DNA of 64,000 nucleotides, taken from NCBI GenBank assembly GCA_964106915.2, contig OZ066929.1. The stretch is one strand, 5' to 3'. Under the pieces are notes generated by a model. That model searched no databases. It was not told the DNA's origin and worked only from the letters and a program-made list of their open reading frames with translations. A program made the translations under genes and the position numbers. Each line of letters opens with the position of its first letter. Position 1 is the stretch's first letter. This stretch comes from Podarcis gaigeae (lineage: Eukaryota). Of the stretch, positions 414 through 64,000 are shown one piece after another.

Positions 414-24871
<24,458 letters not shown>

Positions 24872-29826: not shown

Positions 29827-30906
29827 TAGTTTCAAAGTCATCTGACTGACCTAAAAAAAGTCTGGATGGAACAGAGGAATTTATTCCTTGGTGAACTGTG
29901 TTTTGGATTTTGTTGTATTATTTCTAAAAATATTATTTATTAATCTGTTCTTTGGAGAAGGTCATGACCTGGTTTCTCACATCTCCATACATCATTCCTT
30001 AACAGTCTTGCACCATCCTTGGTATAGCAGCTTCCCTTGCACTTGAAATATCACCAGTGTGCTCAAAAGCACCATCTCTTTTTATTACTATTTCTAGGAT
30101 GAGTAAGATTGGAAACAACTCTCAGAAATAAGCCTTGGGGAATTCTGGTGCAGAATGGCTGTAGCATTGGCTGACTCACAAAATTGTTCCTACAACGGTT
30201 GAGGCAAAGAGCGAGAAACATAGTGGAGAATGCCTTTTGTTGAATTAACCTTAGTCAAACTTGTACATATTGAGACAAAAAGAAACATCTGGAGGATCAC
30301 AGGTTCCCCAACCCTGTCCAATCAAGCACATCTACAGTACAATGTTATATTCCCTGTTTACTCAGAAGTAAGTCCTACAGCATTCAAGGCACCTTATTGT
30401 CAGGTAAGGTGCCTAAAAATTCACATTTGCACAAAGAAACAGAAAAAGGTATATGTAGGGACTCAGCTAGATTGGTAAAGAAAAAGCAATTTATATGTGT
30501 TGTATGTGCAGTATAACACTGTGCCACCAGATGGTGCTGTGGAGTCCCATTTTTACCTACGGGATTTCCCTGTTTAAATGTATGTGTTTAACTGAAATGC
30601 TTTTTTGATGTGTCTAGATCCAGCCTTGGTTCGAGCGAGAGGCAGTGTTTCAGCTTAAAGGCGTTAGTGAGACATCAGAAACAGATTGAGGGAAACAGGG
30701 AATAGGATCTGATTTATATTTACTTCAGCCAGCCCCTGGCGACACCCACCTCACACCTGATTGGCTGTTTTGTGCCTAGGCAGCAAATCACAATGCAGGC
30801 TTCAGAATCCTGGCCTGCCTTTTTATGCGGACTCAAGCTCAGAGCAGGGGACACGCAGGAACATAAATAAACTGGAAGAAATTCCAATTTCTGATCCAAC
30901 AAGAGA

Positions 30907-30983
30907 TCATAATTTTCTGCTTTGTTTCGGAGAAGCCACTGGTGTCCTTGTTCTGCTGCTGTGAGGCGAATGATTCCTTAAGC
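30907..30983 (-). CDS. Small gene last coding exon (LRNHSPH...SRKL*)
   Basis: ctgtag acceptor after a pyrimidine tract, TGA at 30909-30907. Confidence 0.7.
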
Positions 30984-33900
30984 CTACAGTGGAAAGAGAC
31001 AATAATCATGTAAGCACCAATGCGTCTGTGAACAAGATGGTAAAAACAAGATGGTGGACTTGCCAAAAGATTAAAACCTTTTGGGACATGATCCATGATG
31101 AAATAAAAAAAATGATAAGGACATCACACACACAAAAAGGCAGAGGCATATCTATTAGGAATTCTAGATAAAGATATCCCAAAAGTTAAAACTAACTTAT
31201 TTCTATTTGCGTCAACAGTGGCAAGAATTTTGATTGCTAGCTATTGGAAAGAAGACAGCATCCCAACAAAAAGAGAATGGTTGGGGAAACTTTGTGAGTA
31301 CTTGGAATTAGCAAAACTGACAGATATAATAAAGAGAAAATCCAAAACTATGGTTATGACGCAATGAGAGTTCTTAAATGATTATTTACAAAACCAGAGC
31401 TCAACTACATCTGGTTGTGTTTAGAATAATTTTGTGCGTAATATAAAAAATACAAAGTGAGGAAATCCAAAGGGAAAATATGAAGAACAGAGGTTCTGGC
31501 GAACGGATTATTAAAAACGCGTGAGGTAAATGGTGGAAGTCTTTTTAAAAAAACAAACAAACAAACAAACAAATTATTTAAGGTAGATAAGGACAAGCTG
31601 AAATTATACAATTGAATATAAATATAGATGGGAAACGGCTATGTATTGTGAGTACTTATCTACTTTAAAAAAATAATTCACTTATGATCTTTTTCTTTTA
31701 CTTCTTATTCTTTCTGTGTTCTTTTTTTCTTTTTTCTGATATCTTATCTTTCATTTCACTGCTTTATTGTGAATAGCATTTTATAGAGGTATAAATAACT
31801 GTAAATATGAAAAGAGACAAAATATTCTCTAATTTTTTCCCCTTGGTTAGATGTATTTTCTTTTTCTTTTGTATTTTCTTTTGTTGTGAATATGTATGTT
31901 TTCTAATTTGTACTTAATAAAAATATTAATAAAATTAAAAATGAATAAATAAAGCAAATACTTCATGCAAATATGGACAATAATGTGAGATTTTGGTTAA
32001 GTTTGGTCTCTGTATGTAAAACAAACTGTACATTCAGAGAATGGTCATTAAATATTTATTTATTTATTTATTTAATTCATAAAATTTATACACCGCTTGA
32101 TGGTAAACAACAACAACCTTCAGTCTTCAACTAGCATTAAATGATGACATTGAGGTGATACGTACGTATAACCCTTTTAAATCTGGTTGTGACCATGTTA
32201 GGGGGAAAGCAACCCATTATTCATTGAATATGTTTTAAGCTTATATCTCAACCCAGCAGTTCACCTGAGGCAACTTGCAGCTGTTCCCTGACTGCCCTTG
32301 GACAATGAAAAGACTGGCAGTCCTCAGGGAAGGAGTTGCTTGTTTTGAAATTCATATGCTATAGCTGGGTTCCAATAAGTAAACCAAGCTGATTATGGAT
32401 TCTGAAGGTGGTTATTCATCTCACTTGGTTAAAAATGTAATTCCACTTCTCCATATCTAATACATGCCATCTTTCCTGAATTGCAGGGGGTTGGACTAGG
32501 GGCTCCTCTGAGTCCCTTCCAACTCTACAATTTTATGATTCTATGTTAGCCATCAAGACTCACAAAAAGTAATAAACTGGACGTTCTCTTTAATAATTAT
32601 GAGCTCACCTTCAGCAGCTGGGATATCCAAGGTTGCTTTTTTGTGGTTCTTTCTGGATTTTACTCTCGGAGAGGGGACTTTGCGCTCTTGCCAGCTCTCT
32701 AGCTTAGCTTCAGGTAGGAGAAATATATAATTCACCAAAGCAATTCAACGGTGCAATGAAAAAGCGAGATAGAGCATCAGCAATTATCTAACTAAGGGAG
32801 CAGTCTTGTGCCCTCTGGCACAGTGGCTGAAGGTCCTCATGATGCTACAGACCACCCTCTGTGATGCCACCAGAAGTTTCCACACAGCAGTGATGGAAAG
32901 CTCTCAAACCACTGCTATTCTGACAGCAGTATAAAATGTATACATAAAAGTTTCACTCACCTATTTTCCACTGAAATCAAAGGGGCATAAAACCCTTTAC
33001 CCCTTCTTGGTTGCATCTGAAGGTGGAAGATCTAAAAAGGGACATGTGCATGCAGAGTGTACAGCTGGACCTTTTACAAACCTAGTTCCCAGTTTCAAAG
33101 AGGCAAGCCACATTTCTGAATAGTTATGGTCCTACATTGAAAATGGGCATGTCTCTTTGGCATGGGAGGTGTATTTTTGTCCAGAGGCACCGATCCATCT
33201 TTGACAGGGACACCTAGGCTCAGGGACAGACAAAGCTTAGCTTCTTTCACTGGCAAGTGCACACAGTTGTCAGTCCCTGGGCCCTGATGGCACTTCTGGC
33301 TGACTACTGACATTTGCATGAGAAGAGAAGACTCCGTAGAAAAAACGCTGGGCACAAGGAGAAGGGGACGACAGAGGATGAGATGGTTGGACAGTGTTCT
33401 CGAAGCTACCAGCATGAGTTTGACCAAACTGCGGGAGGCAGTGGAAGACAGGAGTGCCTGGCGTGCTCTGGTCCATGGGGTCACAAAGAGTCAGACACGA
33501 CTAAACGACTAAACAACAACAAACTGACATTTGAAGATGCTTTTCAAATTGCATAGATAAATGGAGGCAAGTTCACCCACCTACCTAGGAACTTAGCATT
33601 AATGACGGACTCATCTTTCAACAGAGGTGTAAATACTCTCTTGGAAGGCCTTTCACCTCCTGGAAAGGGCAAAGGTAAAGAACAATTATAGTGTGTGGTT
33701 AGGGGTAGGGATGGAATGTCCTGTTTAGCAGTCAGAATAAAGAGCAAGAGTTGAGCTAGCTGGCAAAGTCATGGCAGAACAGCTGCCAATCACAGCTGTG
33801 GCTAGCATCGTTGTTCTAACTAAGCACATTCTATTAGAAGCAAAACTCATTTTCAGTGGGTTCTCACTCACAAGTAGAGCTGGTTGAAAAAACTGATTTC

Positions 33901-36827
33901 CACAAATTCTCACATGAACCAATTTGATTTTCATCTCTTGGACTAGAGTGTAGATCAGAACACTAGATTTTTCCAAATTTTGTAATACTGTTCTTGGTTA
34001 ATTTTTTTTTTAACCAAAAGGACCTTTAAAATGTATATAAAATTGGTTTAGAAACACGGGCATTGAGATCCCATCCATGCTGAAATACATGTTTTCTAAT
34101 AAAATATTGTCAGGGGCTCAGGAGCAGAAGCACAGGAAATGGAGAGCAAAGGGGAAGAATCTGAGGGCAGCGTAGGAGAAGATGACAGTGGCCCGAGAGA
34201 TTCCATGAGCCTCTCCAGCGAATCGGAAGATTCACAGAAGGGGGCGCCGGTGGCCAGGGCAAGGGGGGTCCCAAGGGGGACACTCCAGAAGCAAGGGGCC
34301 AGTGGGGACTCCCAGAGCAGCAGTTGGAGATCAGGACCAGCTTCCCCACCAGAGCATAGTGGGGGGAAGAGTCCCAGGTATCGGGGCCAGCGTATCCCCC
34401 AGCAGACAGAGAAGATGAGTCAGGGCTGACCACGCCTCCATCGGAGAGTCAGGCAACGGAGGGGAGGTCAGGTCCAGCCAGCATCCCGGAAGAGGGAAGC
34501 AGTGATAGAAGCAGTGTAACGGTCAGGAGGAAGGTCACTGGGTTGGCGCGTGAGCCAAGTTCAAATGTACAGGCGCGCGGGACAGCAGAGAACGAGGATT
34601 GGGAACCAGGTCCTAAAGCCCGCCAGAGGCAGGGGGAGGAGTCAGGAGACTCAGCGTCAGAAGAGTCCAGAAAGGGGAATGCCTCAGCGGACAGGAGGAC
34701 CCAGAGGAGGAGAGAGCAGAGGAAGAGGTGGAGCAGGGCTAGAATCTTAAACTGGTGTCAGGGGGGAGGAGATTCAGACGGAACTTCGGCGGTCTAGAGT
34801 TTAAGACGTAGAGCTGCGCGCTACGGCTTTGAAATGGAAACTGAACTTCAATAAAGACTTTTGTATATAACAACGATCTGGCGTTGGTCCTCTGTGAGCT
34901 GGGCCCTTGGGGCAGCTCTGACAAATATGTTTTTAAATATGGTTTTTTAGGCAGATTTTTCTTTATGAAATCATAGATACATAGGAAAATGGGATGGAAT
35001 GAAAGCATGCAAAATTGACTCAGAGGTAAAATAGACTGATCCACCTATCCTTGCCTCTGAGTGACAGGCATAGGATTGGCTGCAAAGAACACTAGAAGTA
35101 GCTACACTTTGTGGACCCAGATGCAGAATTGTAAGCAATAAGGAACTGCTCACCTTCTTGCAAAGTGTTTCAGGGCCCACAGCAGCAGACCTTACAGGCA
35201 AAACTGTGAATTTGTGCACATATCTGTACATGCACAGGTAAAGGTCTAAACCTGCGGTCTAAACCACTAAGTCTCTTGGGCTTGGGAAGGCTGGCGGTTC
35301 GAATCCCTGCAACAGGGTGAGCTCCCGTTGCTCGGTCCCTGTTCCTGCCAACCTAGCAGTTCAAAAGCACATCAAAGTGCAAGTAGATAAACAGGTACTG
35401 CTGTGGCGAGAAGGTAAACGGCGTTTCTGTGCGCTCTGGTTTCTGTCATGGTGTTCTGTTGTGCCAGAAGTGGTTTAGTCATGCTGCCCACATGACCCAG
35501 AAAGCTGTCTTTGGACAAACACCAGCTCCCTCGGCCTGAAAGCGAGATGAGCGCCACAATCCCATAGTTGCCTTTGACTGGACTTAACCGTCCAGGGGTC
35601 CTTTACCTTTTACCTTTACATGCACAGATAGTACCGATTCCAGTGTGCATAAATTATCATGAGAACTGGATTCAGACTTCCTTGGTTTTAGGTGCACATT
35701 GTGCATTTGTACTGCCATACCTGTCCACATGGGAGTCTAGAGATTTGGTGCAAGGGACCTACTTGTAACACCCAGGAGTACATAGGCCTCACGTTCCCCC
35801 AGAAGCTCAGTTGCGGAGCGCTGCTTGTTCTGGAGTAAATTCTTCACCTGGCCACTCTCGTCTGCTAACTCTATGTCATCTGAAACACATGATTCAAGAA
35901 CTGGCAAGTGTTATTCATTCACACGCTATCCCTGTTTTTTTCAAACGTAAATTTTGAGCTTTCTGCATGTGTTCAATTTGTGTCAGGCCTTCTCTGAGGA
36001 ATGTGCTTCTACATACCTTGGAGTCTTTAACAGAAAGGCAAACATGCTCACAAGGAGGCTGGATGTCTGTGTCAGAGCACTGAGTGCTGTCTCAATTAGC
36101 CTCCACACTTCAGGATTTGACAAAGTCTCTGCTGGATCAAGGTGCTTACTGTCAGTGAGTGTAACCCACTGAAACATCTAAATGCATGGATACACACTCC
36201 CACCCCCCAACATACAAAGTGCACAAAGATTTTTAGTTACTGTACCTTCATCCTCACAGCCACAGCGGCGTTTGATGCCATCCAGGAGACGCTGGACTTC
36301 ACAGTGAATGTTAAAAATGTCTGCCCTGTTTTCTACAAAGTAAAAACAAAATGCAAAAATTGATTTCATTTTTTTGAATAAAACAATTTTAACCATTTAT
36401 ATGCCACCTTCCAGTAAAACATCTCCCAAAATAGCTAACAATAATGAATTTAAAACATATGCAAGGATAAAACCATGGGAAACAGCTGTCATTCACATGC
36501 TTGTAACCTCCAGGTTAGACTAATATAATGTGTCCTTGAAGATTGCAAGGAAACCATAGTTTAGCTGAAAATACAGCCTGTGGGGTTGCTAACTGGGTCC
36601 AGGTCCCGAAATGTGTTTCCCCCTGTGTTTGGACAATTGCACTGATTCCCAGTCTATTTCAAGATGCTGGCTCCCATCATCCCTGGCCATTGGTCATGCT
36701 TGCGGGGGCTGATGGGATGTGTAGTTCTGCAAACCCTGGAGGGCAAAGGTTCCCCAAACCTGTTGCAAGACAACAAAGGTTCAAGGCCGGAAGGTCACTT
36801 ACCACCATGAAGCACAGTTACAAACAT
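30907..36827 (-). CDS. Uncharacterised CXorf65/C22orf15-family protein (Pfam 'Il2rg' PF15874-like), 159 aa, 6 coding exons
   Basis: Exons 36827-36803, 36332-36246, 35879-35763, 33659-33585, 32707-32609, 30983-30907, all introns phase 1 GT-AG, 480 nt, no internal stop. Protein: MFVTVLHGENRADIFNIHCEVQRLLDGIKRRCGCEDEDDIELADESGQVKNLLQNKQRSATELLGEREAYVLLGVTRGERPSKRVFTPLLKDESVINAKFLAKLESWQERKVPSPRVKSRKNHKKATLDIPAAEGLRNHSPHSSRTRTPVASPKQSRKL. The pattern MFxxxxHG..N..C....LL..I....IxL.D.SG.VK.L...YV...F.PLL matches recalled CXorf65/C22orf15. Confidence 0.85.
31040..31955 (+). mobile_element. Degenerate L1 LINE 3' end
   Basis: Frameshifted WWTCQKIKTFW..I..EI, LLGI, WKEDSIPTKREWLGKL..YLELAKLT, then a T-rich 3'UTR and A-rich tail. 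Confidence 0.75.
32609..32707 (-). CDS. Small gene coding exon 5 (basic tail)
   Basis: ctgaag/gtgagc, 99 nt. Confidence 0.75.
33317..33522 (+). mobile_element. Bov-B LINE short 3' fragment
   Basis: Same 3' end as the other copies; 11-bp TSD ACTGACATTTG. Confidence 0.9.
33585..33659 (-). CDS. Small gene coding exon 4 (GERPSKRVFTPLLKD...)
   Basis: ttccag/gtaggt, 75 nt. Confidence 0.82.
34108..34923 (+). mobile_element. Solo LTR (Gypsy-like), 816 bp
   Basis: Termini TGTCAG...CTGACA; perfect 5-bp TSD AATAT (34103-34107 / 34924-34928); AATAAA at 34850-34855; GC-rich against AT-rich flanks. Confidence 0.88.
35238..35616 (+). mobile_element. Sauria SINE variant
   Basis: Same body; 11-bp TSD TACATGCACAG. 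Confidence 0.88.
35763..35879 (-). CDS. Small gene coding exon 3 (DIELADESGQVKNL...YVLLGVT)
   Basis: tttcag/gtaggt, 117 nt. Confidence 0.87.
36246..36332 (-). CDS. Small gene coding exon 2 (NRADIFNIHC...CGCEDE)
   Basis: ttgtag/gtacag, 87 nt. Confidence 0.85.
36803..36827 (-). CDS. Small gene coding exon 1 (MFVTVLHG)
   Basis: ATG 36827, donor gtaagt; acceptor cccttcag just upstream at 36841-36843. Confidence 0.85.
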
Positions 36828-37320
36828 TTCTGCTGAAAACCTGAAGGGGAAAAGAAGGGAAAGGAAGAAATGCGCCATGAGGTCAATATATAAAAGTCTG
36901 AGCTTGTTTATGCTGTTGAAGTACCAGTATCTGACTCCTCAGCAAATGCCCAGGAATTGAGAGCATGGAGGGGGGGGGACATGCTATTCTTCGAATTGAA
37001 TTCCCTAGAATTCTCCCTTCCTTCCTCTACCTTTTTCATTCCAAGGGCCACATTCCCTCTTAGAGAACCCTCTGGGGGCTACATACCAGTAATAGAAATG
37101 GCTAACCTACATGCATTCATGCTCAGCACACATCCCTTAGCAATTAGGGTTGAAAAAACATTCTACATGCTTATTTTTCTTTTTGAAAAAATATATATCC
37201 TAGTTTTCTTTTGACACAAGAACTCGGAACTCATTGCAACCATCTTTAAATTTCATTTTAAAACTATGCAGCATTCGAATGTAGCAGGACAACTCACAAA
37301 TGACCCAAGCCATCACTGAC

Positions 37321-37520
37321 CTTTCTGGATGATGTGACAATGGCAGTAGCCCTAATCCAAAACCGGGATGGACTGACGTAGCTCCGGGAGCCAGGAAAAC
37401 GTCGGATGGTCAGGTGCCACCTTTGTTCCTAAATTCCGCACCAGCCTTGCAAGTGAAAGTGATATTGTAGCTATTTTCCAAGCAGCCTGATACAGCACAC
37501 ATATGTCTTTATTGCCGAGT
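37321..37520 (-). other. Probable non-coding first exon of the small gene (5' end approximate)
   Basis: AAG|gtcagt donor at 37320, CpG-enriched, directly downstream of X-box-like motifs. Confidence 0.45.
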
Positions 37521-37539
37521 GCTGCTTGGGTTTGTTTCC

Positions 37540-37570
37540 GTCTCCATGGGTGACATGTTGCCCTAACAAT
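37540..37570. promoter_or_regulatory. Two adjacent RFX X-box-like motifs
   Basis: GTCTCCATGGGTGAC (37540-37554) and GTTGCCCTAACAAT (37557-37570), compared with the X-box consensus GTNRCC(N0-3)RGYAAC. Confidence 0.5.
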
Positions 37571-37812
37571 GGGCCTGGTAAACAGCAGCAGAGCCAATGA
37601 AACCACCTCTCTTTTCTACCAGTTATGTAAATATTACCTCATCCTCCACGAGCAAAGAACCTGCCTTAATGTACTTCTATGTGGATGAGGATCTCAGGAA
37701 ATCTAGGATAAAGAAAGTGCTTGGTTATCTGAATAGATCAGAAATAAACAGCATTAGCATACTCTCCAACATTTCTCCAATGAAAATTGGGGTGTCCTAT
37801 TCAATAATAGTT

Positions 37813-40121: not shown

Positions 40122-40310
40122 TCAGCTGCTGAGCTGGCCACCATGATGGATTTTCAGACAATAAGCCAGTTCCGATTCAATGTCTTTGATTTTCTGCGCA
40201 ATGAGACTTCTCTTGATTCCCAGCAACACACTTTGGTCTCTCTTGGCAGCCCAAGATTCAAGATGTTCCGAGAAGTGCTGTGCTTTCTCCTCAGGAAGAC
40301 AACTTGCAGA
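40122..40310 (-). CDS. Large gene terminal exon ([20 protein letters not shown]...*)
   Basis: gtacag acceptor, 62 codons plus TGA. Confidence 0.8.
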
Positions 40311-40507
40311 CTGTACAATGGGTGGGGAGGAAGGAGAGGAAGTGGGAAACAGGCAGAAGAAAGCCATTGAGTTGTCCTGAAGCAATTACTGGAATAGTGG
40401 TTGAGGCAAGATGCTGTAAACCAGGAGATCTGGGTTCTCATTACTCTGGTGCTACTCAAGAAGAGCAAACCAGACTGTGTGGCCCCCTTCCTCCAGTTCT
40501 GATGCCT

Positions 40508-40552
<45 letters not shown>

Positions 40553-43500
40553 TCTTTATTGTCATTACACAAGTGCAACATTGCACAAGTGCAACGAAAT
40601 TGGATGCCATCCCTTAAAAACAACAAAAGCAACACAACAACAACAACCAAACAAACCACATTCCAGCCACACCCACACCCACACCCATCAAACTCCCAGG
40701 TCACACTATCGAGTTACTGCATTTAAGAAGGCCACAGCTCTTGGATAGAAACAACTATTTTTCAGTCTATTTGTCCTTGACTTGATGTTTCTGTATCTCC
40801 TGCCAGAAGGCAGTAGTACAAACAGACTGTGTCCCGGGTGAGATGCATCCTGCAGGATATTATTTGCTTTCCTAAGACAACGGGAACCGTACAGTTCTTC
40901 CAAAGATGGGAGGGGATGACCAATAATCCTTTGGGCTGTGGTTATGACCTTCTGGAGCACCTTCCTCTTCCTAGCTGTACAGCTGGAGAACCAGGCACAA
41001 ATACAGTATGTGAGAATGCTCTCTATGGAGCCTCGGTAGAAGGACACCAGCAGTCTCTCACTCAGATTGTTCTTCTTTAAAAGTCTGAGGAAATAAATTC
41101 TCTGCTGGGCCTTCTTCACCAGAGCAGTGGTATTTGCGCTCCAAGTCATGCCCTGATCGATAGTCACTCCCAAAAACCTGAATTCCGCCACCCTCTCCAC
41201 CCGTTCCCCGTTGATATACAAGGGCTGAATGTCCGCCTTTTTTTTCCTGTAATCCACCACCAATTCCTTGGTCTTAGTCGTATTAAGAGCCAGATTGTTC
41301 TCTCCACACCAAGCACAAAGCCGCTCCACCTCGTCCCGATAGGCGGACTCATCCCCTCCTGAAATGAGCCCCACCACCGTAGTGTCATCAGCAAACTTGA
41401 TGATTTTGTTGCTGGAATAAATGGCTGTACAATCATACGTATAGAGAGTATAGAGCAGGGGACTCAACACACAACCCTGTGGTGAGCCGGTGTTAAGGCT
41501 AAGGGCTGTGGACATATGTGACCCTACTCTAACCCTCTGAGAACGTTCTGACAAAAAGTCCAAAACCCAGAGACAGGTGGAGTTGGAGAGTCCAATCGCC
41601 TCTAGCTTGGACACCAGTCTATGGGGGAGGATAGTGTTAAAAGCAGAGCTAAAATCCACAAACAGCAGCCTCACATAACTCCCCGGCTGCTCCAGATGGA
41701 ACAGAGCAGCATGGAGAGTGGTAGTGATAGCGTCTTCCGTGGATCTATTTGCCCTGTATGCAAACTGGTAGTTGTCAAAAGTTGATGGAAGACAGGAAAT
41801 AATGTGACGGCGCACCAGTTTCTCAAAACACTTCATGATGATTGGAGTCAGTGCAACTGGTCTGTAGTCGTTCAGACTACTGATTGTGGATTTTTTAGGC
41901 AGAGGAACAATAGTTGACGACTTCAGGCAGGGTGGGACAATAGACTGGTGTAAGGACTTGTTGAAGATCTTAGTAAAGACCCTCGCCAGCTGATCCGCAC
42001 AGCCCTTCAACACCTTTCCCGTAATGCCATCAGGTCCAGCAGCCTTCCTCGGATTCACCATCCTCAATACCTGTCTCACCTCATGCTCCTCCTCCTCTTA
42101 CAAAGCACTTGCTTCAAGTTTGTGACTGAAGAGTGTTCAATGAAGGCAAGCCAACCTTCAACCAACTGGATGCCCTCCAGATGTTTTGGATATGCTGGCT
42201 GGAGGCTGATGGCAGTGGTAGTCCAAAACATCTGCAGTGGAACATCTGGTGGGAAGGCTGATGTAAACAGATTATCTAGTAGATGTTGAGTGAGGGACTT
42301 CATCATAGAATGAGTGAGATCTGTCTGCCCAGCCTCACTCTTTTGGGCACTAACTGACAATTTCCTGGTTTTTGTCCACCACATGCCCCAGAGTGTTTCA
42401 ATAAATGTTCCTTTGCATTGCCATTTTTAGCACTGTAGACATAGGGATCCATGCAGCAAGCACACTTGCCATATGATGTGTGTGAAGTGAGTTTGAAAGA
42501 GGGATGAGAAATTACTATTCCCTAGTTCATTCCTAGTCTTAAACACAATGCCCAGCCTTATGGGGCTATTGTGTAGATGTTGGGTTGTTGAGCACTTTGC
42601 ATACAAGGAGCACTATCAAGGCATATTCATCTGCATTTAAAATAATAGTCATTTGCATCACTGCCCCCTGCAATTAAATTGTGGTATGCACATACTGCAA
42701 ATGAGGGTGACTCCTCTTGTGCTCTGAGTTCGCGGTCCAGATGTTCCTCTTCTTCTTGGATTGTTAAGGCCTGCAATGTCAGCTGGAAGAAGTCCTCATT
42801 CAAGCCATCCAGCATCTCCTCCAGCTCTTCAATCTTCACCTAGAAAATGGAAACCATTAAGAAGAAGGAGGCCAAATGCAAGCGAGGACACAGCTGCTTT
42901 TGGAACAGTTTTGTAGAAGAGAGAATTTCATCATTTGCAGAAGGTCATTTCTTACTGCTAAAAAGGCAAGAGTAGCCCTTCTGAAAAGGACACAAGAGCC
43001 CTACCCTCTAATGCACTTGGGCATGCCACACAGATGCCCAAATTGCACATCATTGGTAGATCCATGGATGGGACTGACCTATGCTTCTCTCCCCGCATCA
43101 TGTCTCTTTGATAACATGTTGATGTTGTTTGTTAAACCACAATGCTGTGTCATTGCAATAGCCTTATCCTGTCCTCAGTGAGTGACAGTCTATGAAACAT
43201 GAAGGGTATTGTATCATATTATATAGCAGGGTGGGGAACTGGATCTGACCAGCAGGCTGGATCTTGAACCCCCCCCCCCAAACACCATGGGCTGTTTCCA
43301 TTCAGTGGTCAGATCTGCCCATGAGTCAACAACCTATTTCATACATTATGTCAGGTGAAGCATTTTCCTTTGCCTGAATGATCTGAAATCAAACCATGCA
43401 GGCAAAAAGAGGTTCCATGGGTACTCTGGTCGGCTGATGGGAGGCTCCTGCAAAACCCACTTCCACAAGGAGCCTTTGCCTGCCCTCCACCTGATGAGAT

Positions 43501-46500
43501 CGGTATAGTCTGGGTAGGCATGGCTTGGGGAAGACAGCAAACCAGAACCACTGCTAGGCTTTATTAGGCCTGCAGAAAGGAGGTTCTCCACAGCTTTCAC
43601 AGGTACACAACAGAGACATGGACCAGTGTCACCCATGTATCTCCCTTAATAGGTAGTCTGGGGTCCAGAGCCTTCCAGTCTTGGAATAACAGCTCATCTA
43701 GAACCAGGGGTCATTTTGCCCATCCTTTTACCTTTTGGCAAGCCCATTATTGTTTTGCTCAGAATGGCCAAGTGCCAGTCCTCATATAAATAACCCCTTC
43801 CCACCCTATCTGCATAAGGGGAGTATGAAAAGGCAGCCACCAGAAAACAACACATTTCCATAAAAAGGGTCTGCATATCAGAGCAAGACAGACTCTTCTA
43901 GAATTGGAAGGGTCTTCTTCCACTGGTGGATGGTGGAGAAGCCTGATTTACATGGCCCCACCTACTAGAGCAAGTAGGAGGTGCAATGGGACAACTCATA
44001 CTCCTTTCCACTGTAGAATAATGATATTGACACAGCAGACATAAACAAGTCTTGCAAGGGGCTGAACTAGATGATCCCTTCCAACCCTACAATTCTATTA
44101 TTCTAAGTTACAGGAGGTTGAGCCAAGTTGATTTAAGGTCAAGTGAGCTACCTGAAGGTCAGAGGAATCTCCTGCCCAAGTCTTCCTCTCACTGCTGCGT
44201 GCTCTTTCTTCAAGTTGCCCTGAAGTTTCCATTATATTTTGAAGCTCTGCTTGCAGCAGGAAACTTCTGTAATCTTGCAATCTGAGACACACAGGAAGAG
44301 AGGGGGAAAAAGGAAAGTAGGATTTTCTGTGTGTTGCACCTGCCTGCATCCAGAGGGCTAGCATGAAGCTCTCTGTCCATGCTTTGAAATGATGGAAAGA
44401 GGAGAGAAAAGAATTGACATGGTTAGAGAGCCCTCCTGGAGCAAGGCATCCATTAGGTTCCCAATATCATCTATTGTGGCTCATCCCTTTATCAGAGGAA
44501 AGAACCACATGACGAAGAGGGTTATATTAAACCAGTGCTGTACTCCCAGACCAAATTGAGTTAGGGGTGGAGTGCAACTGCTACTAACTCATTCAAAAAT
44601 GGAGAGATTCTACACTTGCTACTACATCAGAGCTATGTGCAGGATGGGCCTGTTTAGAAAGTGAACAATCTGGTTCCAGAGAATCTAGCTTGCCTGAAAT
44701 GGCTGCTTTGCTTCAGAAGGTTATTGAGCCATTGCAGACATCCTGGTGGCCTAAATCAATCACTGAGGCAATGGAGGACGCTGTCTCACTGGAGCCAGTG
44801 GACCTTCAGCTGAAGCTGAATGTTTGAAGATTCAGGACATTTTTTTAAAAAAAGCACTTTTTCACACAGTCCATAGTTAAACTATGGAAGTCGCTCCCAT
44901 AAGAGGCAGTGATGGCCACCAGCAAAACAGGCCTGGACAAATTCATGGAGAAGACCATCCATGGCTACTAGCCATGATGGTTGGATACATTAATGCATCT
45001 TAATACCAGTTGCTGAAGACTGCAGGAAGGGAGAGGGCTCTTGGGCTCAAGTCCTGCCTGCAGCTTTCCCACAGGCATCTGGTTGGCCACTGTGAGAACA
45101 GCATGCTGGACTAGATGGGCCACTGGCCTGATCCAGCAGAGCCCTTATGTTCTTATGATGTGTGTTGGGCCTAGAACACCCTAAGGAGATTCCTTTACCC
45201 ATGGAGGTTTTGTTAGACATCACCTTCCCCCTACCTTGTCCACATTTTCCCACTGCATGGCTATTTCTGACTGCTTCTGCCTTCTAAAGAATAGGAAAAA
45301 TGCTACATGCCTCCAATCTGACCAACCCACAGAAGGATGAGGAAGAAAAAAAACCTGTCCCCAGTTTAGTTTTGATGGAGCTCAGTCAGCATCCAGCTGC
45401 TCCAAGCTAAGCAGGACCAGAACTGGAGGCCAGTTATACCTTCAACTGCCAAGCATGAAAATTCTAACACTAATTTGCATACAGCTGACTTGTTGTATGT
45501 ATTGTGATGGAAGCAAGACAGGTCGGCAGGTGCAGGCTGCACAGAGCAATGAGGTCATAACAAGATCGGCCAATGTGGAGTGCTTTCAATTTACACCATT
45601 GGGCCAGCAAAAAAAGTAAGAGCATGTTTTCTTAGAAACTCTTTCAGCCACAACATCGTCTCTTAATCCTCTGTCTACTGAGGACATAATTGATGCATAA
45701 TTGAAGACTGAGAATAATTTCTGAGAACTATGAGATATCCCCGTGGAAAAGAATGGATGTTGCACAACTGCACTGCTGGGTTGATTGCCTGTATTTGGTA
45801 TCAGGATATTACCCAAGGGCAGAGTCTGATTCATTGCTTGTAAGGGAAGATGAGATCCTGTAGATAAATGAAAGAATGGTTTTTGAAAGGCATTTTACTG
45901 CAGGGATATCGTCCTACATAGCTCCAGTTATCTAAGTGATTCTTCTGAGCAAGCTTATGTTGCGTATGGTATGTGCCTCTGGCATCATACTTATTTATTT
46001 ACACAGACAATCCTCAGATGTTGCCTATTGCAATTCTGTACTCCCAGAAGCTGCTTCAAAAAATGCAGGACAGGGCTGCTGGCAGGCTGGTCCTGGGTCC
46101 TTATAGCATGGGGCTGGCCCACCCATGAGGCAATATGTGATGAGACCATGATGAGTGGCAGGATCCAGAGGGGCAGCAGAGCATTGCCTGCTGATGTTGC
46201 CAGAAGTAAGATCTGGCTTCTCTTCAGTAGCACCTCCAATGCTGCCTCTACAGCAGCCTCTTGTTGAATTAGACACAGTACTGATCTCCTCCTATCCCTA
46301 GGGAGGAAATGGGCAGGGGCTGCCCTTTCGGGTCTCCTAGGATCTGCACCTATCCAGCATGATTCAGAGAGAGCCCTGTGACAGCCTTTGTTTCCCGCTT
46401 CAACCACCAGGTGAAGTTGATTTGATTCCCCTATTTTCCCAGTGTAGATCTTTATCCCCCCCCCCCCACGCCTGTTCTTGATGTATATCTTCTTGATGTA

Positions 46501-47939
46501 TATCTTCATTCACCCCTTCTTCCCTAGTGGGGTGTGTGTGTACCATTTTGTGGTTTGCCACAGGTGCCGAAATGCCTTGCCCCAGTCTTCTTACTGCACC
46601 ACAGCAAACACTGTTTCCAAAGTAAAATAAATTATAAACTCTTGCCTTTGCAATTTGAGACTCTTTGTCTGGCCCTCCAATGCACTTGCTGCCTATGCCT
46701 GCCAGGATCTGACCCAAGCCTGATCCTGTCAGCTTACCACTTGGATCCCTCTAGCCAATATTTGTACAACTAGGAAAGGAGAAGATGGCTGCACACATAC
46801 ACCATACATTTAAAGTGTGTTTTCCACTCCCAAAAGAATCCTGGGAACAGTTTATCCAGGATTCTTTCTGGGGGAGGCAGAGAAGGTGCATGGTGTATAT
46901 GCAGCTGATACCCTTATTCACTGACTCTGCCTGGCACATAGAAAACTATAGTGGTGGTAAGGTTTCTTTCGAACACAAATCTACAAGCATGGAGTCAACT
47001 AATGGACATTGATAGATGCCTCCTTTTTCCAAGAGTCTTCTGTTCCTTGTCAGTAGCCCAGTTATCAAGCAATGGGGCTCCCACTATTAGTAGTTTACTC
47101 CACACAAACCCTTCCTTGAAGGAGATGTCAATAGAATTATCTGAGCTCAGTGACTGTTCTCAGAATTATCTCTAGGCTCAGTAATTGTTATCAGTGATGT
47201 AAATGAAAAACAGGACCATTTTCAGATAATAGATATGTACCGAAATTAAATACACAGACAAAATTCATTACAAAGGGCTAGCTTCCTCTATTTCAGTGAG
47301 ATAGGGAAGAAGGAATTAGAACATTATGTAAGCTAAATAATCAATTGTGCAACTGAAAAATGACCTTGTTATTGGAATATATGCACTAATATCGCAACAC
47401 AGCAATATGACACGAGTACAATTATTTGTCTGTCACAATCTTGGATTACTTATCTAGTGAAACCAACATCAGCTACCTTTCCCGTGGGCGTTGCTCAAGG
47501 AAACGAGAGTCAGGCAACATTCGGAGACTCAGCAGTTCTTCAAAAATCGACCGAGCAGCTAAACAAACAGGCGAGCAATTTTTCATCGGATTCTGAAAGA
47601 ATCAGCACAGAAGGCAGAACTTTTAGTGGTCCTAATCAAAGGATCTATTCATCAGAAATATCGAGCGCCCAAGATTTTGCTGACATCGTGGGATTATTAT
47701 TATTATTTTTTTATTTGCATCCAGCTGCTTTGAAATTCAGGCCTTTGGGTTTTTCTTTTCACAACGCAAAAGCTGGGGGTTGAAAACAAAAGAACAGAAA
47801 GCATACACAGAAGTTAAAAGCTCACATTCTACAGCCTTTTTCTGTAATTTAATAATTCTAACTTTTATTTCTGATTGTAGTAATAGGTAGGGATGCCTGA
47901 GAAATTAGATTTCTGTGAATCCTGATCTGAATTATTATG

Positions 47940-47970
<31 letters not shown>

Positions 47971-48990
47971 ACATTATATCCCACTTTTCATCCAAGGAGA
48001 GCAAGGTGACGGGTACAATATTCTCTTTCTCAATTTCATCCTCTAAACAACCCTGGGAGGTAGGTTAGGCTGAGAGATGGCGACATGTTCAAGATCACCC
48101 AGTGTGATCTTGGAGATTTGAACTTTGGTCTCCCAAGTCTTAGTCCAGCAATATACTGTAACCATTACACCACACTGGATCAATTGGTCTGATTCTAAAA
48201 CTTCTATTCATGGGTCAGCAAACCTTTTCAGCAGGGGGCTGGTCCACTGTCCCTCAGACCTTGTGGGGGGCCGGACTATATTTTTTTGGGGAAATGAACA
48301 AATTCCTATGCCCCACAAATAACCCAGAGGTGCATTTTAAATAAAAGCACACATTCTACTCATGTAAAAACACACTGATTCCCAGACCATCTGTGGGCCG
48401 GATTTAGAAGGCAATTGGGCTGGATCCGGCCCATGGGCCTTAGTTTGCCTACCCATGTCCTATATCATGTACAGTGGTACCTCGGGTTACATACGCTTCA
48501 GGTTACAGACCCTGCTAACCCAGAAATATTACCTCGGGTTAAGAACTTTGCTTCAGGATGAGAACAGAAATTGTGCTCCGGCGGCACAGCGGCAGTGGGA
48601 GGCCCCATTAGCTAAAGTGGTGCTTCAGGTTAAGAACAGTTTCAGGTTAAGAACGGACCTCCAGAACGAATTAAGTACATAACCAGAGGTACCACTGTAA
48701 TGGATAGGAATTTGGGGATAGAGAAAAGAAACTACCTCTTTGTGCAGCGCTTAGTTCAACAATGGAACTCACTCCTATATGGGACAGTGAAGGCCACCCA
48801 CATGAATGGTTTTAAAAGAGGATTGGGCAAATCTATGCAGGACAATGGCTATTAGGCATGATGGCCATACTGCACCTCCACAGTCAAAGGCAGTAATCCT
48901 TCTGCCTACCAGTTGAGGGCTCTTGTGCTTAGGCCCTGCTTGAGGGTTTCCCACAGGCATAGAGTTAGCCACTGTGAGAACAGGATGATA

Positions 48991-49035
<45 letters not shown>

Positions 49036-50990
49036 TTATTATTTGTGCCCCGCCCATCTGGCTGGGTTTCCCCAGCCACTCTGGGCGGCTTCCAACAGAG
49101 ATGAAAAATACACTAAAATGTCACATATTAAAAACTTCCCTGAACAGGGATGCCTTCAGATGTCTTCTGAATGTCAGGTAGTTGTTTATCGCTTTGACAT
49201 CTGATGGGAGGGCGTTACCGAGAAGGCCCTCTGCCTAGTTCCCTGTAACTTGGCCTCTTGCAGTGAGGGAACCACCAGAAAGCCCTCGGAGCTGGACCTC
49301 AGCGTCCAGGCAGAACAATGGGGGAGGAGACGCTCCTTCAGATATACTGGACCTAGACTCTACAGGTCATTCGCACAATCCAGCAGGTTCTCCTCATGTG
49401 CTTATGAATTCAACTATTCTTCCGATTTTGTGCTTCTCTGAATTTGGCAAGATCATTTGCAGCTCATGCTCCAGAACCATTTTAGAAAGTGTCATTTACA
49501 ATTTAGAGCCACATCTGTAGTGCTACAGCATGCACATCTGGCCAGAACACCTGAAAACTTATTACCTTCCCTGCTGTCTCTTCTGCTCCCCAAGAACACT
49601 GGAAAAAGGCATCAGCTAGGGCAGCCACTGCTGTGTTGAGCTCTTTCCAAAAGCCAACGTTTGGAGGAATAGCTTCCTTAGAGCCTGGGAGAAAGATAAA
49701 AAGACCGATCTGTGTCATCAGAATTCTTTGAATCCTCCAGATGTAGCCTCACCCAATATGGAAGCCCCTTTCCATTAGACACTCCCATCTGGAGATTCAG
49801 AGTTTTGTTCAGTTCACTGTCCCTTGCCACAATATTACACCTTTCTGCATGCAACCATCCAGGCCAGATGAGATGTAGTTCAGGAGAGCCAAGCTCCAGA
49901 CCGAATTTTTTAAGCTAGCTAAAGTTTGAACCACAATTTTGTCCAATTACTCATAGCAGTCAAGCGATGAGACTGTTTTGAAGATTCAGTAAGCTAAACC
50001 CATCTTCAGCTCGCCCTTTTGGAAGCCTGTCTGCATTATTAGGCAGGGCTTGTGTGGTGCAACATGCAGATTTAGAAATAGGCAAAACCTTCAGCAGAGC
50101 ATCTCATAAGCCAGGAACCCACACCTCCATTGTGCTATTGTTAGCATAAGGCACAAACAAGGAAGAGGCCAGACTCTCTCCTGTAATATGCTCTGCAGAT
50201 CTAGTTCTTGGAGCTGCTGTCTCTCTGCTTTCCTCTGCCATGATCCTGCGCAATGAAAGGTTAAGGAAGGAAGTGAAGAGACAAAAAAGATCTGCAAAAG
50301 GTCTTTTTGTCCTTGCTTACAATATTACCCAAACAGCAGAAGAAACTATCACAATGAAGGAAGTGTTGTGCCAAATACCTGCTACACAAACAGGATTAAA
50401 AAAAAAAAAATTCCCTGCACCCAATTATGCGGAAAGGATATCATTAGATCACAGGGTGTAGCAGCCTTCTTTGCATTTGACATGGCAATTGTCAGAATTT
50501 CATCATTATATTCCAGGCATTCAAATCAGCCTTCAGTACTATGAAGTACATGCTTTTGCATGCAGAAGATCCCTAGTTCACTCCATGACATATCTACAGT
50601 TAAAGGAAACCAGGTATCCTTTAGCTGTAGATATCATGGAGGGAACAAGGGACCATGTGAAAAGAAACAAACTCTGGGGATTGTTGGAAAAAATGACAAC
50701 CCCATGTCAAGTTCCACGTCCCCTTGAATAATGTATGAACATCTTGGCAATACATAGAATCATAGAGACATAAAGGACCCCGAGGGTCATCTAGTCCAAC
50801 CCCCTGCAATGCAGGAATCTCAACTAAAGCATCCATGACAGATGGCTATCCAACCTCTGCTTATAAACCTCTAAGGAAGGAGAGTCCACAACCTCCTGAA
50901 GGAGACCATTCATTTCTTTCACTCCTATTTTTTATCATTGGGTAGAGGGAGCAGAGAAATCCACATCAGAATGACATTAGGACATGCAAC

Positions 50991-51026
<36 letters not shown>

Positions 51027-54000
51027 TATTACGGTCAAAGATCAGTTCAAGAGGACAAGCAGTAAACTGAAATAGATCATGGGTAGGCAAACTAAGGCCT
51101 GGGGGCCAGATCCGGCCCAATCGCCTTCTTAATCGGGCCCGCGGACGGTCCGGGAATCAGTATGTTTTTACATGGGTTATTTGTGGGGCCTACCTAGTGT
51201 TTTTGCAGGAGCAGAATGTGCACTTTTATTTAAAATGCATCTCTGGGTTATTTGTGGGGCATAGGAGTTCATTCATTATTTTTTTCCAAAATATAGTCTG
51301 GCGCCCCACAAGGTCTGAGGGACAGTGCTGAAAAAGTTTGCTGACCCCTGAACTAGATGTTTCAGAGCATGAATGTTGGCACAGGGCTGTCATTTTCATT
51401 GCATTGCTAAATTCTGGGTGGCAAGTATATATATATAAAAGAACATGTCTGGCACTTTTGAATGCCTCTGTCAGTCAGAGTTGACAGTGCTGGGTTGGAT
51501 GGTCTGACAGCTTCCTTCCACCTAACTATACCTGCTTTGATGTGTGCCATGGCATTCAGCAGCACCGTCACAAAACCCCCAGCACTCTCCAGGTGTGATG
51601 AAAGTATATACAGGAACCTGTTGGTGGCATCATAGTAGGAATCTCTGGCAAACTGAACCTCCGTAGGGCCTTGCTTGGGGACTGCTTGAGCCAAGAGGAG
51701 AACCAGCGCTGGCAAGGAGAAGGCTCTTCCCAGAAGGCGTGTGACAGTGCAGGCAAAGCGGTAAACCACAAAATGGCGAGGGGAGAGGCTGGTGAGGTCA
51801 GTGGGAACCACAGCATCAACAGAAGGTCCTGAAGAAAGGCAGCCATTATCTATGTTTTCTCCTGGAAAAAGGGGACAGAATAATGGAAAGTTGGCACTGA
51901 AAGTCATTCTATAGTCAAATACAGTGTTTCCCAAACTTGGGTCTCCAGCTGTTTTTGGACTACAACTCCCATCATTTCTAGGTATCAAGACCATTGTGGT
52001 CAGGGATGATGGGAATTGTAGTCTAAAAGCAGCTGGACACCCAGGTTTGGGAAACATGGGTCTAGGATCATGCATGAGGAACCTTTGGCCCTCCTGATGT
52101 TGCTGAACTACAGCTCCCATCAGCCCTAGCAAGAAAGGCCAATGGTTAGGGATGATGGGAGTTGTAATTCATCAACATCTGGAGAGCCAAAGGTCCTAAA
52201 GTCTAAAAATAGCACTATTCTGAAAGCAAGTTCTTTATTCCTGAATCACCTCAGTCCCTAAACAAAGCCTTATCCCTGTGTTTGTGAGATGAAAAGGGAT
52301 GTTTGCAAAATGAATAGGGATGTTTCAGGAGTTAGGTTTTTCTTAAATAGTATATTTAGAAACATATATATCTCTGACAGTGAAGGCAGAGCATTGCCAT
52401 CATGGCTAGCAGCCACTGACAGTCTTATCCTCCATGAATTTGTGTAATCTTCTTTTAAAGCCATCCAAAGTTGCTGGCCATCACTGCTTCCTATCGGAGA
52501 GAGTGCCGTGTTCATTTATCTGTCCTGGGAGCTTTCAGCGTTCAGCTTCACTGGATGTCCACAAGCTAGGGCATCATGAGAAAGGAAGACAAGCTTTTCT
52601 CTATCCACTATCTCTGTGCCGTGCATAATTTTATGGCTCCTATCACATCCGCTTCTTAATCACTTTAAACCAAAAAGTCCCAGATAAGATAGCATCTTAA
52701 GGGTTGGCTGCCAGAGACAGTCAGATATAATATAAACGGCCGCCAGAGTGCACATGAGATTTGCTTCCCATCCCCCCACATGTTTCCTGCTTAAGCCCCC
52801 ATAGGTAAAGGTAAAGGGACCCCTGACCATTAGGTCCAGTCATGGCCGACTCTGGGGTTGCAGCGCTCATCTCACTTTACTGGCCGAGGGAGCCGGCGTA
52901 CAGCTTCCAGGTCATGTGGCCAGCAGGACTAAGCAGCTTCTGGCAAACCAAAGCAGCGCACGGAAATGCCGTTTACCTTCCCGCCAGAGTGGTACCTATT
53001 TATCTACTTGCATTTTGACGTGCTTTTGAACTGCTAGGTTGGCAGGAGCAGGGACCGAGCAACGGGAGCTCACCCCGTCGCGGGGATTCGAACCACCGAC
53101 CTCCTGATAGGCAAGTCTAGGCTCTGGGGTTTAACCCACAATGCCACCTGCATCCTTTTTAAACCCTGGAGATTTAAAGAGCAACCTCATCATTCTAAGA
53201 TGGAACGAAGCAAAGCGAAGGAATCACCAAACTACTTTGATGATTTGCATGTGTTTCTATGCATCATTCCCACTTCCTCTCTGAGACAATCCCAAGAAAC
53301 ACAGGGATGATGGGTATCAGAAGATGCAGGAATCAGCTCTATCACCTGGAGCAGGAGGCGAGTGCGGGGGCTGCTGGGATGTCTCCAAAAACTGCTTGAT
53401 CTCGCCCAGGGTCTTGGCAAGGGGGGACGTCGCCATCAGGGCCTCTACTTCCAGCTCACTTACGCAAGCAAGCATGCTGCTCTTGGGAGGCTGCAGGTCC
53501 AACCCTGACAAATACAGACAAGGCATATTATCAGCTGAAGGTGCTGCTTGTAGACTCAGAGAGACAAGGATGAGGATGATGACTTCATGCAGATTACTAA
53601 ATTCATGCAGCGGGGAGGGGCTGTTATGTAACATACTGTCACAAGGGTCACTTGCATGGCCTGAAAAAATGACCTGTACATACATAACTGATGCTCTGAA
53701 GCTTGCAGACCGCATGCGGCTTATGTTTCCATCTAGTGGCAGCTCAGGAGAACTGCATCTCCCAACAACCGCAGACAGGGAGAAACTAGACGGGCAATTA
53801 GGATTTCCTGTGGTTTTGTGTGTATTATTTTAAACTAAGCGGCTGCTCTCAAGATTCCGCACGTTTTGAAAAGTGGTGTTTTCAGAAAGATTGCTAACCA
53901 TTTCCTCCTTTAATCTGATATAAATTGCCCCTTCCTGCTGTTAACACATGCAATTGTTTTGTTCTCAGAAGCCAACAGCATCTCTGGAGGAGCTTCGCTA

Positions 54001-54454
54001 GGGAAAGGGTATGGATGTTTAGGACACCAGCTTCAGTGCTGATGTTTACAAGAGTCCTTTGTGTCTGCAATTTTCACTGGGAGGGGAAAAAATCACCTTT
54101 CAGAGGAGTAAATGAGAGTCCTACCCAGCCATGCAAATTGCATGCGTGCACTGGGGTCATCATGTGTACCTGTGAATGGATGGATATTTCAGTGGATTGG
54201 GTATGTGGATTAGAGAAAGGATGTGGACTGGCTCTATCAACTTTTGTTTCAGGCCCCAAACACATTATCCCAAAGGGTTCTCCTTCCCTGTTCTGTAACC
54301 AGGTAAAAAGGCTGCACACATCCTTACCTTGGTCTTCACAGGCACGAGAGCTAAGGGAGGCCCGTTTCCCACCGGAGAGCACACGCTGTGTCAGGGAGCT
54401 AGTACCCTACACAGGAAATAATGTTCAAATATCACAGGAATGAAAGACAGAGAC

Positions 54455-54503
<49 letters not shown>

Positions 54504-62329: not shown

Positions 62330-62732
62330 CTGAAAAGGCAGGAGAACACAGTGGTGATTAAACAAAGGGAAGCTGGTCACCACGATTTCTTCTCAGAGGC
62401 CTGATGTGGTCTAAGGGAAGTTCTTGAGTTCCCTTCCCCTGCTCCACTTTATCCAGGTGGCATCCATTAATGGTTCACAGTTCATGCTTCCTTCCACCAC
62501 CTGCTTAACACCCCCCATAGCCTCCCAGCAGGCATTTCTCTATGGTTCAGGTGCCTCACACTAGTCCACATGGCTTCTTTGGCCTGAACTGACCATCCTT
62601 CAGAGGCAGCAGGGCTAAAGCTGAAGAGGCAGAGTTTGCAGCAGAAATGGGGACCTGTGTCCCTCCGGGTGCTTTTGGACTCTGTGGATTTATTTGAATT
62701 AAGTTTTAGTTGGCATTGTGTAATGTGTTCTG

Positions 62733-63084
62733 GAGGAGACTCTTGAGAGTCCCATGGACTGCAAGAAGATCAAACGTATCCATTCTTAAGGAAATCAGCC
62801 CTGAGTGCTCACTGGAAGGACAGATCATGAAGCTGAGGCTCCAATACTTTGGCCACTTCATGAGAAGAGAAGACTCCCTGGAAAAGACCCTGATGTTGGG
62901 AAAGATGGAGGGCACAAGGAGAAGGGGACAACAGAGGATGAGATGGTTGGATGGTGTTCTTGAAGCTTCCAGCATGAGTTTGATCAAACTGCGGGAGGCA
63001 GTGGAGGACAGAAGTGCCTGGCGTGCTCTGGTCCATGGGGTCACGAAGAGTCGGACACGACTAAACGACTAAACAACAAACAAC
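62733..63084 (+). mobile_element. Bov-B LINE 3' fragment
   Basis: [15 protein letters not shown]...GVTKSRTRLND; CAA tail; TSD GTGTTCTG. Confidence 0.92.
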
Positions 63085-64000
63085 GTGTTCTGACATTTGC
63101 ATTGCAATGTGTATTGTATTTGGTGTATACTGTATAGGAATTATAGCCCAGCGACACCAGAAGAGACAAAGGTTCTTGCCTCTCATAAGAAGAACCTGCT
63201 AGATTGGATCATCTACTCCTGCATTTTGTTCCCATAATGGCAATCCATTGCTCTGCTGTTTCGTTTCAATTATTTACTTGTTTTCATCCCGTATTTTATT
63301 CCGTGAGCTGCCCTGAGATCTTATGATGAGGGGTGTTATGTAATAAATCTAATAAATAATTAAATAATCCAGGTGCCTTTGGGAAAGCTGCAAAGGCATG
63401 ATCCGAACACAAGAGCACTCTGCCCTCCTGTGGTTTCCAGCAAGTAGTATTCAGAAGAATTACTGCCTCTGGCTTCAGTTCTTATGGACTGGGACAGATC
63501 TGTCTAGGCTAGATGGGAGTTATAAGTCGAGTAACATCTGCAGAGGCACACGGTCTCTCCACTCTAGGTCTTTCACTCCACTTTGTCTGCTGCGACAAGG
63601 TGACCCACAAACTAAGTCCTTTCCTTCCATGCAGAAATATGGGTGCGGTTCAGCTGCAAGAGCATTGGAAACAATGCTTAAGTGTCTGGCCTATTTGAGG
63701 CACAGAAAGGAAAAACAAGTCATCCTTAGAACTCTTGCACAGAGAATACTTCTTGAGATCACACTATGCCTAGCTCTACTTTGCAATCCAGACCAAAGCA
63801 AATATTCCACGGTGTGTTTATTTTGACACCAGCGCGTGCTGGAAACCATGACGTTTGCTGCTCTTATGTAACAAACTGAAGAAAGCAAAGCCACCTATTA
63901 CTTGCATTCTTAAGGCAAGGTGTGGCATACCTGGGCTGCTCCTCATTGCTAGCTCCACCTGCTATTGCTATGCAGCAAAGAATTGCTTACACAGGAGGAG

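Follow-up and report, generated by a model that had tools for sequence, protein, structure and literature searches.

The closest described relatives of the gene analyzed here are CXorf65 (Gm614 in mouse) and C22orf15. CXorf65 is named among the genes altered in azoospermic testis (PMC8875138), and a knockout of Gm614 is cited second-hand, from a meeting abstract, as impairing fertilization (PMC12373746). C22orf15 appears in a bronchial gene set that is lost together with ciliated cells (PMC2820080). In this study, we examined a gene for a protein of 159 amino acids on contig C28 of Podarcis gaigeae, in a window of 64,000 nucleotides (the whole stretch of DNA that was analyzed). With CXorf65 it shares the Pfam domain PF15874 ("Il2rg"), the predicted fold, a basic tail, and the positions of phase-1 introns, which interrupt the gene following codons 8 and 37 and close to where the domain ends. 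It differs from CXorf65 in sequence (~33% identity, separate clade) and adjoins ATP12A and SCN3B instead of IL2RG and MED12. Furthermore, its branch has Leu6 in place of Lys6, keeps Cys32 and Cys34, has a shorter C-terminal helix, and is found in none of the placentals listed. The same Pfam domain, Asn16, Cys19, Cys32, Cys34, the L-x-D-E-x-G hairpin, and Arg67 are common to this gene and C22orf15, from which it is set apart by ~33-35% identity, a separate clade, and its location, C22orf15 being described as a flanking gene of VPREB3 in tetrapods (PMC9614664).

Gene model, transcripts, and neighboring genes

Six minus-strand coding exons spanning positions 36827-30907 join into a frame without internal stop, with a spliced coding length of 480 nt, i.e., 159 codons plus stop. 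All five introns are of the GT-AG type and all five are in phase 1. Upon exon joining and translation, the coordinates, the exon count, and the phase-1, stop-free frame of 159 codons put forward in the initial annotation all proved correct, and the gene is a real, intact, spliced gene. The same annotation had regarded it as hidden, which does not hold, nor is the gene unannotated. RefSeq carries the same 159-aa model in three lacertids, namely, XP_033028373.1 (Lacerta agilis), XP_028563980 (Podarcis muralis), and XP_034995442 (Zootoca vivipara), with 95-98% identity, and many reptile genomes annotate the gene. The L. agilis model equals our product in 156 of 159 residues (98%), and only the name of these models is at issue.

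Table 1. Positions of the 159-aa gene, its transcript features, and neighboring genes in the window
Feature	Position	Strand	Remarks
Non-coding leader exon	37321..37600	-	Spliced to 36840; 5' start beyond 37600; short upstream ORFs
Coding exon 1 with 13-nt leader	36803..36840	-	ATG at 36827 (coding 36827-36803); 8 codons + 1 nt
Coding exon 2	36246..36332	-	Strand 2 and helix 1 of beta-grasp domain; family residues Asn16 and Cys19
Coding exon 3	35763..35879	-	Strands 3-5; conserved L-x-D-E-x-G hairpin and Arg67
Alternative longer exon 3	35763..36128	-	Acceptor 36128; frame would end prematurely after 85 aa
Coding exon 4	33585..33659	-	Extra strand and helix start beyond ubiquitin-like core; donor used in RNA-like contigs
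Coding exon 5	32609..32707	-	First half of basic Ser/Pro-rich tail; present in RefSeq models
Alternative longer exon 5	32609..33031	-	Acceptor 33031
Coding exon 6 with stop codon	30907..30983	-	Predicted frame and RNA-like contigs
Likely 3' UTR	29880..30906	-	Possible polyA signals: 30081, 29936, and 29880
ATP12A (non-gastric H,K-ATPase alpha)	4103..24871	+	Start is first coding-like frame; inferred stop ends at 24871
Giant Cys-repeat (Ephrin_rec_like/GCC2-type) gene, 3' end	40122..64000	-	Runs >80 kb past the window

Two of the exons identify the family on their own. Exon 3 matched positions 34-71 of PF15874 with 31.4 bits (E 2e-7), exceeding the Pfam cut-off of 27 bits for this model of 92 positions, and exon 2, which is conserved, matched positions 5-31 (E 5e-5). 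Exons 4-6 by themselves matched no Pfam family. Together with the 156 of 159 residues equal in RefSeq, the two exon matches are more than chance would yield. The membership in PF15874 proposed earlier was confirmed with the 98% identical protein P0013 (82.7 bits, positions 1-91), and the conserved family residues F2, G8, N16, C19, L42, D44, G47, R67, and L90 are all present in the 159-aa protein. When proteins were searched with exon 3, 11 of 38 candidates matched, all of them PF15874 members and mostly named "CXorf65 homolog". The product is divided into an acidic part (residues 1-100, pI 5.4) and a basic part (residues 101-159, pI 11.65) with 15 Lys/Arg, 8 Ser, and 6 Pro, in agreement with the Lys/Arg/Ser/Pro-rich tail described before.

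Splice joints were taken from contigs of related species, from runs guessed to be RNA and carrying no record of tissue or level. These RNA-like contigs join introns 1, 2, and 5 at 36332/36803, 35879/36246, and 30982/32608 (CT..AC on the plus strand), the joint between exons 5 and 6 being present in all four runs from three studies. The exon 1 acceptor at 36840, which has a strong pyrimidine tract, and its donor at 36803 are both spliced, as is exon 2 on both sides. The leader intron joint 36838/37319, again CT..AC on the plus strand, was found in three of the four runs. The predicted splice structure was thus borne out for introns 1, 2, and 5, the leader, and the exon 4 donor, but the joints listed contained neither that of intron 3 nor one using the exon 5 acceptor at 32707; for these two, RefSeq models and conservation point to the proposed sites. 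At the 3' end, a single RNA-like contig spans 30384-30985 unbroken, supporting the 3' UTR. Also, a 163-aa unnamed relative sits on a Logan contig of 1,180 nt, which suggests a spliced full mRNA in some reptile.

Two alternative forms were observed. The joint 33031/33585 connects exon 4 to the longer exon 5 in two of the four runs, both from one study, and would yield a 112-aa product lacking the tail, whose stop would precede the last junction by 388 nt; this transcript is likely a decay target. The joint 36128/36246, leading to the longer exon 3, was likewise found in two of four runs.

The gene order on C28 is a GRAMD1 gene, SCN3B, ATP12A, the 159-aa gene, and the giant Cys-repeat gene. An exon of the plus-strand P-type ATPase scored 107.2 bits against H,K-ATPase alpha 2, narrowly over Na,K alpha 3 (106.4), and the ATPase carries the C-terminal motif of ATP12A. 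ATP12A and the 159-aa gene face each other tail to tail, as reported in the initial annotation, with ~6 kb between the stop codons.

On the other side, the exons could be the last, C-terminal part of the giant Cys-repeat gene or be transcribed mainly by read-through from it, and two snake gene models (P0009 and P0023) indeed fuse both genes. In lizards, snakes, turtles, and a frog, the reading frame of coding exon 1 stays open upstream as far as the acceptor, and no CpG island is found at the 5' end of the 159-aa gene. However, an in-phase last exon and stop belonging to the Cys-repeat gene itself are inferred at 40310-40122, with polyA signals, and the upstream ATGs of the leader terminate early. 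With few exceptions, the relatives, those of invertebrates included, exist as separate proteins of 100-250 aa that begin with the same Met, and one long fusion was among the 11 matches listed in the exon 3 search. We consider both a joint gene and expression mainly by read-through very unlikely. One RNA-like contig of 2,555 nt has ~2.1 kb above 37600 and, if contiguous, would enter the Cys-repeat 3' UTR; this extension may reflect some read-through or a promoter within that 3' UTR.

Placement within the PF15874 family

Searching this genome with the Pfam PF15874 profile revealed two loci, the 159-aa gene on C28 and a second one on contig C33. On C33, 21 kb separate the latter from an IL2RG exon, and MED12 follows farther on; this second locus matches the other L. 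agilis "CXorf65 homolog" (P0265) and has phase-1 introns at positions matching those of the 159-aa gene. It is the true CXorf65 of this genome, and the place of CXorf65 beside IL2RG and MED12/FOXO4 is occupied by this gene and not by the 159-aa gene. SMARCB1 and a VPREB3/IgL-V-like frame are located on contig C29, so the 159-aa gene on C28 does not stand in the setting of C22orf15 either. Searches with the Pfam model and three protein queries found no C22orf15 in this genome, and none came up within 200 kb around SMARCB1, near VPREB3, or at a CX9C locus on contig C2.

A tree of 87 rows and 105 columns, in which placental C22orf15 sequences are absent, yielded three groups with support values of 100/99 for a third clade containing the 159-aa protein, 99/98 for CXorf65, and 100/95 for C22orf15. 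The third clade spans shark, fishes, amphibians, reptiles, birds, and marsupials; within it, branching from shark to squamates roughly follows the species phylogeny, and the marsupials fall among amniotes. The 159-aa protein groups neither with placental CXorf65 nor with C22orf15 of bird, turtle, and shark. It shows 33% identity to P0265, 55% to koala P0080, and 53% to shark P0071, and mean identity is 32-33% between the three groups and 61% within the third clade.

Approximately unbiased (AU) tests were run on 36-row trees of 105 columns, leaving out five long-branch rows and near-duplicates. With group lists picked after the first tree was known, they rejected joining the third clade to CXorf65 (P = 0.036, borderline on 105 columns), joining it to C22orf15 (P = 0.006), and a single vertebrate-only clade of all three branches (P = 0.006). 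Moving the marsupial copies to CXorf65 was not rejected (P = 0.077); free trees and profile scores put these copies in the third clade. Sea urchin and annelid proteins are nearest the third clade, and a brachiopod protein is nearest CXorf65, the last being an unsure long-branch join. These invertebrate placements suggest that the three branches likely split before the vertebrates arose.

The evidence also bears on the possibility that the 159-aa gene is CXorf65 or C22orf15 relocated, as a one-to-one ortholog, and that the family has only two genes. The RefSeq name "CXorf65 homolog" would fit such a move, and so would the two family loci that are left when four queries, and the surroundings of SMARCB1 and VPREB3, yield no C22orf15. 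Against it, CXorf65 is in place beside IL2RG, turtle and curlew each carry both the third-branch gene and C22orf15, C22orf15 is described beside VPREB3 across tetrapods (PMC9614664), and the AU tests reject both joins. Pelodiscus carries all three genes, and koala and Dromiciops carry the third-branch gene plus the X-linked-type one. A move is therefore largely refuted and highly improbable. The 159-aa gene is very probably a third paralog, distinct from CXorf65 and C22orf15, as first proposed, with CXorf65 in place elsewhere in the genome and a separate clade supported by the tree.

Predicted fold and proposed role

An AlphaFold model built with 140 sequences reached pLDDT values of 86-98 for residues 1-110 and of 52-62 for the remainder. 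The predicted structure comprises strands at residues 2-8, 11-16, 39-43, 69-77, and 84-88 and helices at 21-32 and 98-109. Residues 1-78 form a beta-grasp domain, modeled as a five-strand sheet grasping one helix in the order b-b-a-b-b-b, followed by strand 84-88, helix 98-109, and a disordered tail. The lizard CXorf65 is predicted alike, with a longer helix. The top fold matches are all beta-grasp proteins (ubiquitin, the TBK1 ubiquitin-like domain [ULD], ISG15, SUMO, Elongin B, and CIDE), with Z values of 7.5-7.8 and rmsd values of 2.0-3.0 over ~72 residues for ubiquitin, TBK1 ULD, and ISG15. Matches to CIDE (Z 6.4-7.1) are tied with other beta-grasp matches. Although these Z values are middling (<8), the predicted matches agree completely on the beta-grasp, and the earlier guess of a ubiquitin-like fold was thereby supported. 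The best Foldseek match had an E value of 0.0025, with none at E 0.001; with Z values below 8 as well, the fold is silent on function.

Sequence searches of the PDB gave no match for P0013, and the family profile gave eight weak ones (E 0.03-1), none of them real. In the PDB and Foldseek searches, no solved axonemal chain matched in sequence, and none resembled the protein convincingly in fold; one axoneme chain, 8j07_c2, came up in Foldseek and was dismissed at an rmsd of 26. An Atlas search returned PF15874 clusters and one ciliate lead (0.81), and nothing usable without PF15874.

The resemblance to ubiquitin, SUMO, and ISG15 raises the question of whether the protein is itself a conjugated modifier. 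None of the 47 third-clade members has a Gly-Gly end, only 3 of 47 have Gly-Gly after strand 5, and a conserved strand and helix extend past the core, so conjugation seems next to impossible. In this respect the protein resembles integral ubiquitin-like domains, such as TBK1 ULD, the Dsk2/Rad23 UBL, Elongin B, CIDE-N, and the tubulin cofactor E/B UBL, which share its beta-grasp core (Z 6.4-7.8) and likewise have no conjugating C terminus. It differs from these in that identity is <21% and the domain makes up almost the whole protein. Ala43 takes the position of ubiquitin Ile44 (placed by eye), which makes classic proteasome-receptor binding doubtful. As for features of PB1 and CIDE-N domains, the acidic D44-E45-x-G47 is conserved and the strand-1 lysine is absent in the third clade. 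The tail has a net charge of +4 to +13 in all 47 members and carries Lys/Arg clusters and Ser-Pro-x-Lys/Arg motifs.

By analogy, the third-branch protein may serve as a docking adaptor that is not itself conjugated, acting in cells that form sperm or bear motile cilia, a proposal to which we give an even chance. The ubiquitin-fold domain would dock a partner through the conserved polar surface residues Asn16, Asp44-Glu45-x-Gly47, and Arg67, and the basic tail would hold an acidic polymer, e.g., tubulin tails or nucleic acid. Phosphorylation at Ser-Pro-x-Lys/Arg may tune tail binding. The putative setting, spermatids or motile-ciliated cells, is taken from the paralogs only. A member of the PF15874 family was also found in the flagellate Cyanophora.

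The main rival to the adaptor is a role in the nucleus, where the tail would act as a nuclear localization signal (NLS) and contact DNA or chromatin, with a regulator being recruited by the ubiquitin-like domain. Mouse Gm614 is reported to be nuclear in B cells, with a C-terminal NLS at residues 172-191, and to bind T-rich promoter sites (PMC7609865), and the Lys/Arg clusters and Ser-Pro-x-Lys/Arg motifs of the third-branch tail would suit such a role. Those observations were made on EGFP fusions under overexpression (PMC7609865), and the paralog concerned is only 33% identical. The tail of CXorf65 differs from that of the third branch, and its helix is longer. Furthermore, basic disordered tails in general can drive nuclear entry when overexpressed, which counts against this reading, and we regard a nuclear role as unlikely.

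Mammals, nomenclature, and implications

Mammalian proteins were scored with profiles built without mammals. Among the marsupial proteins listed, 14 of 21, from nine genera, scored best as third clade and seven as CXorf65. All 40 placental proteins listed scored as CXorf65 and none as third clade; a word-based protein search missed placental C22orf15, which exists, and a fast-evolving placental copy could escape likewise. A search with P0013 gave 53 matches from 116 candidates, none of them named from a mammal. The third-branch gene was probably lost in placental mammals, judging from these sequences. The initial annotation had suggested a gene possibly lost or unannotated in mammals, of which the placental part stands as likely; for mammals overall it fails, since nine marsupial genera keep the gene.

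Human GRAMD1B and SCN3B are located at 11q24 and ATP12A at 13q12. This split means that the lizard gene order is broken just where the 159-aa gene lies, and the placental loss may have accompanied the rearrangement that separated ATP12A from SCN3B. Taken as a whole, a pre-vertebrate ubiquitin-fold gene would have been kept from shark to marsupials and lost in placentals at the ATP12A-SCN3B/GRAMD1B breakpoint, removing one of three sperm/cilia adaptor paralogs, a loss hidden by the CXorf65 name. We propose this scenario tentatively, at somewhat less than even probability.

The label "CXorf65 homolog" is given both to the 159-aa gene and to the actual CXorf65 ortholog that the same species carries (P0265, P0276, and P0293), and by sequence comparison it is the wrong name for the former. 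In the main texts of the open-access literature searched, we found no account of the third branch or its ATP12A synteny. The sequence is thus already in databases under a borrowed name, and what is new is its recognition as a separate, unnamed family branch. This is a modest result of comparative genomics and not a new kind of system. Two genes stand under one label in reptile, bird, amphibian, and marsupial annotations, and expression or selection results filed under "CXorf65 homolog" may be credited to the wrong gene. The PF15874 family appears to have three old branches rather than two, with a predicted ubiquitin-like fold despite the misleading Pfam name "Il2rg". If true, a gene that is present in marsupials but missing in placentals would represent a dated, testable loss.

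Leader border and intron 3 of the third family branch

In the studied gene, the third PF15874-family branch, four codons separate the acceptor from the start Met (window 36828-36840, minus strand). These codons are open and alike in the lizard, snake, turtle, and frog models, and the position of the gene's leader intron thus seems to be conserved across tetrapods. Intron 3 harbors an insertion that resembles a solo LTR in its TG..CA ends, its 6-bp inverted termini, and the 5-bp duplication of its target. The insertion is left out in contigs of one related organism (organism A; runs presumed to be RNA), and a second, similar copy was found at locus L067:3877-4509.

Features in the window and on contigs of lizard genome G000
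Feature	Position	Strand	Placement
816-bp insertion	window 34108-34923		intron 3 of studied gene
463-aa open frame	window 40709-42097	-	last intron of giant gene
Giant Cys-repeat gene	window 40122-64000, on to ~G000:C28:24,511,000 or further	-	upstream of studied gene
Sestrin (PA26) gene	L016:590-4297, G000:C33 ~47.41 Mb		directly past CXorf65

The giant upstream neighbor

The giant gene consists of dozens of Cys-rich exons with repeats of the Ephrin_rec_like/GCC2 type, and its king cobra model carries a wrong name, MEGF6. Its C terminus is free of repeats and partly coiled-coil-like, and those C-terminal exons that were tried gave no Pfam matches. The open frame in its last intron is reverse transcriptase-like and, we assume, derives from a non-LTR element.

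Other loci and members of the family

On contig C29 (loci L056 to L058, 27.69-27.72 Mb), TRIM-like genes lie in the interval from SMARCB1 to the VPREB3/IgL-V-like frames, within which MMP11, CHCHD10, and C22orf15 were not recognizable. A weak exon-2-like match (L057:4867-4980, minus strand; E 0.077) may be a C22orf15 relic. Catshark protein P0099 (Scyliorhinus torazame) forms a long branch outside all three vertebrate groups, close to the invertebrate relatives of the studied gene, and may represent a fourth paralog in sharks. Since human Xq13 has, to our knowledge, no sestrin at the corresponding place, the sestrin beside CXorf65 may be one more gene that mammals lost.
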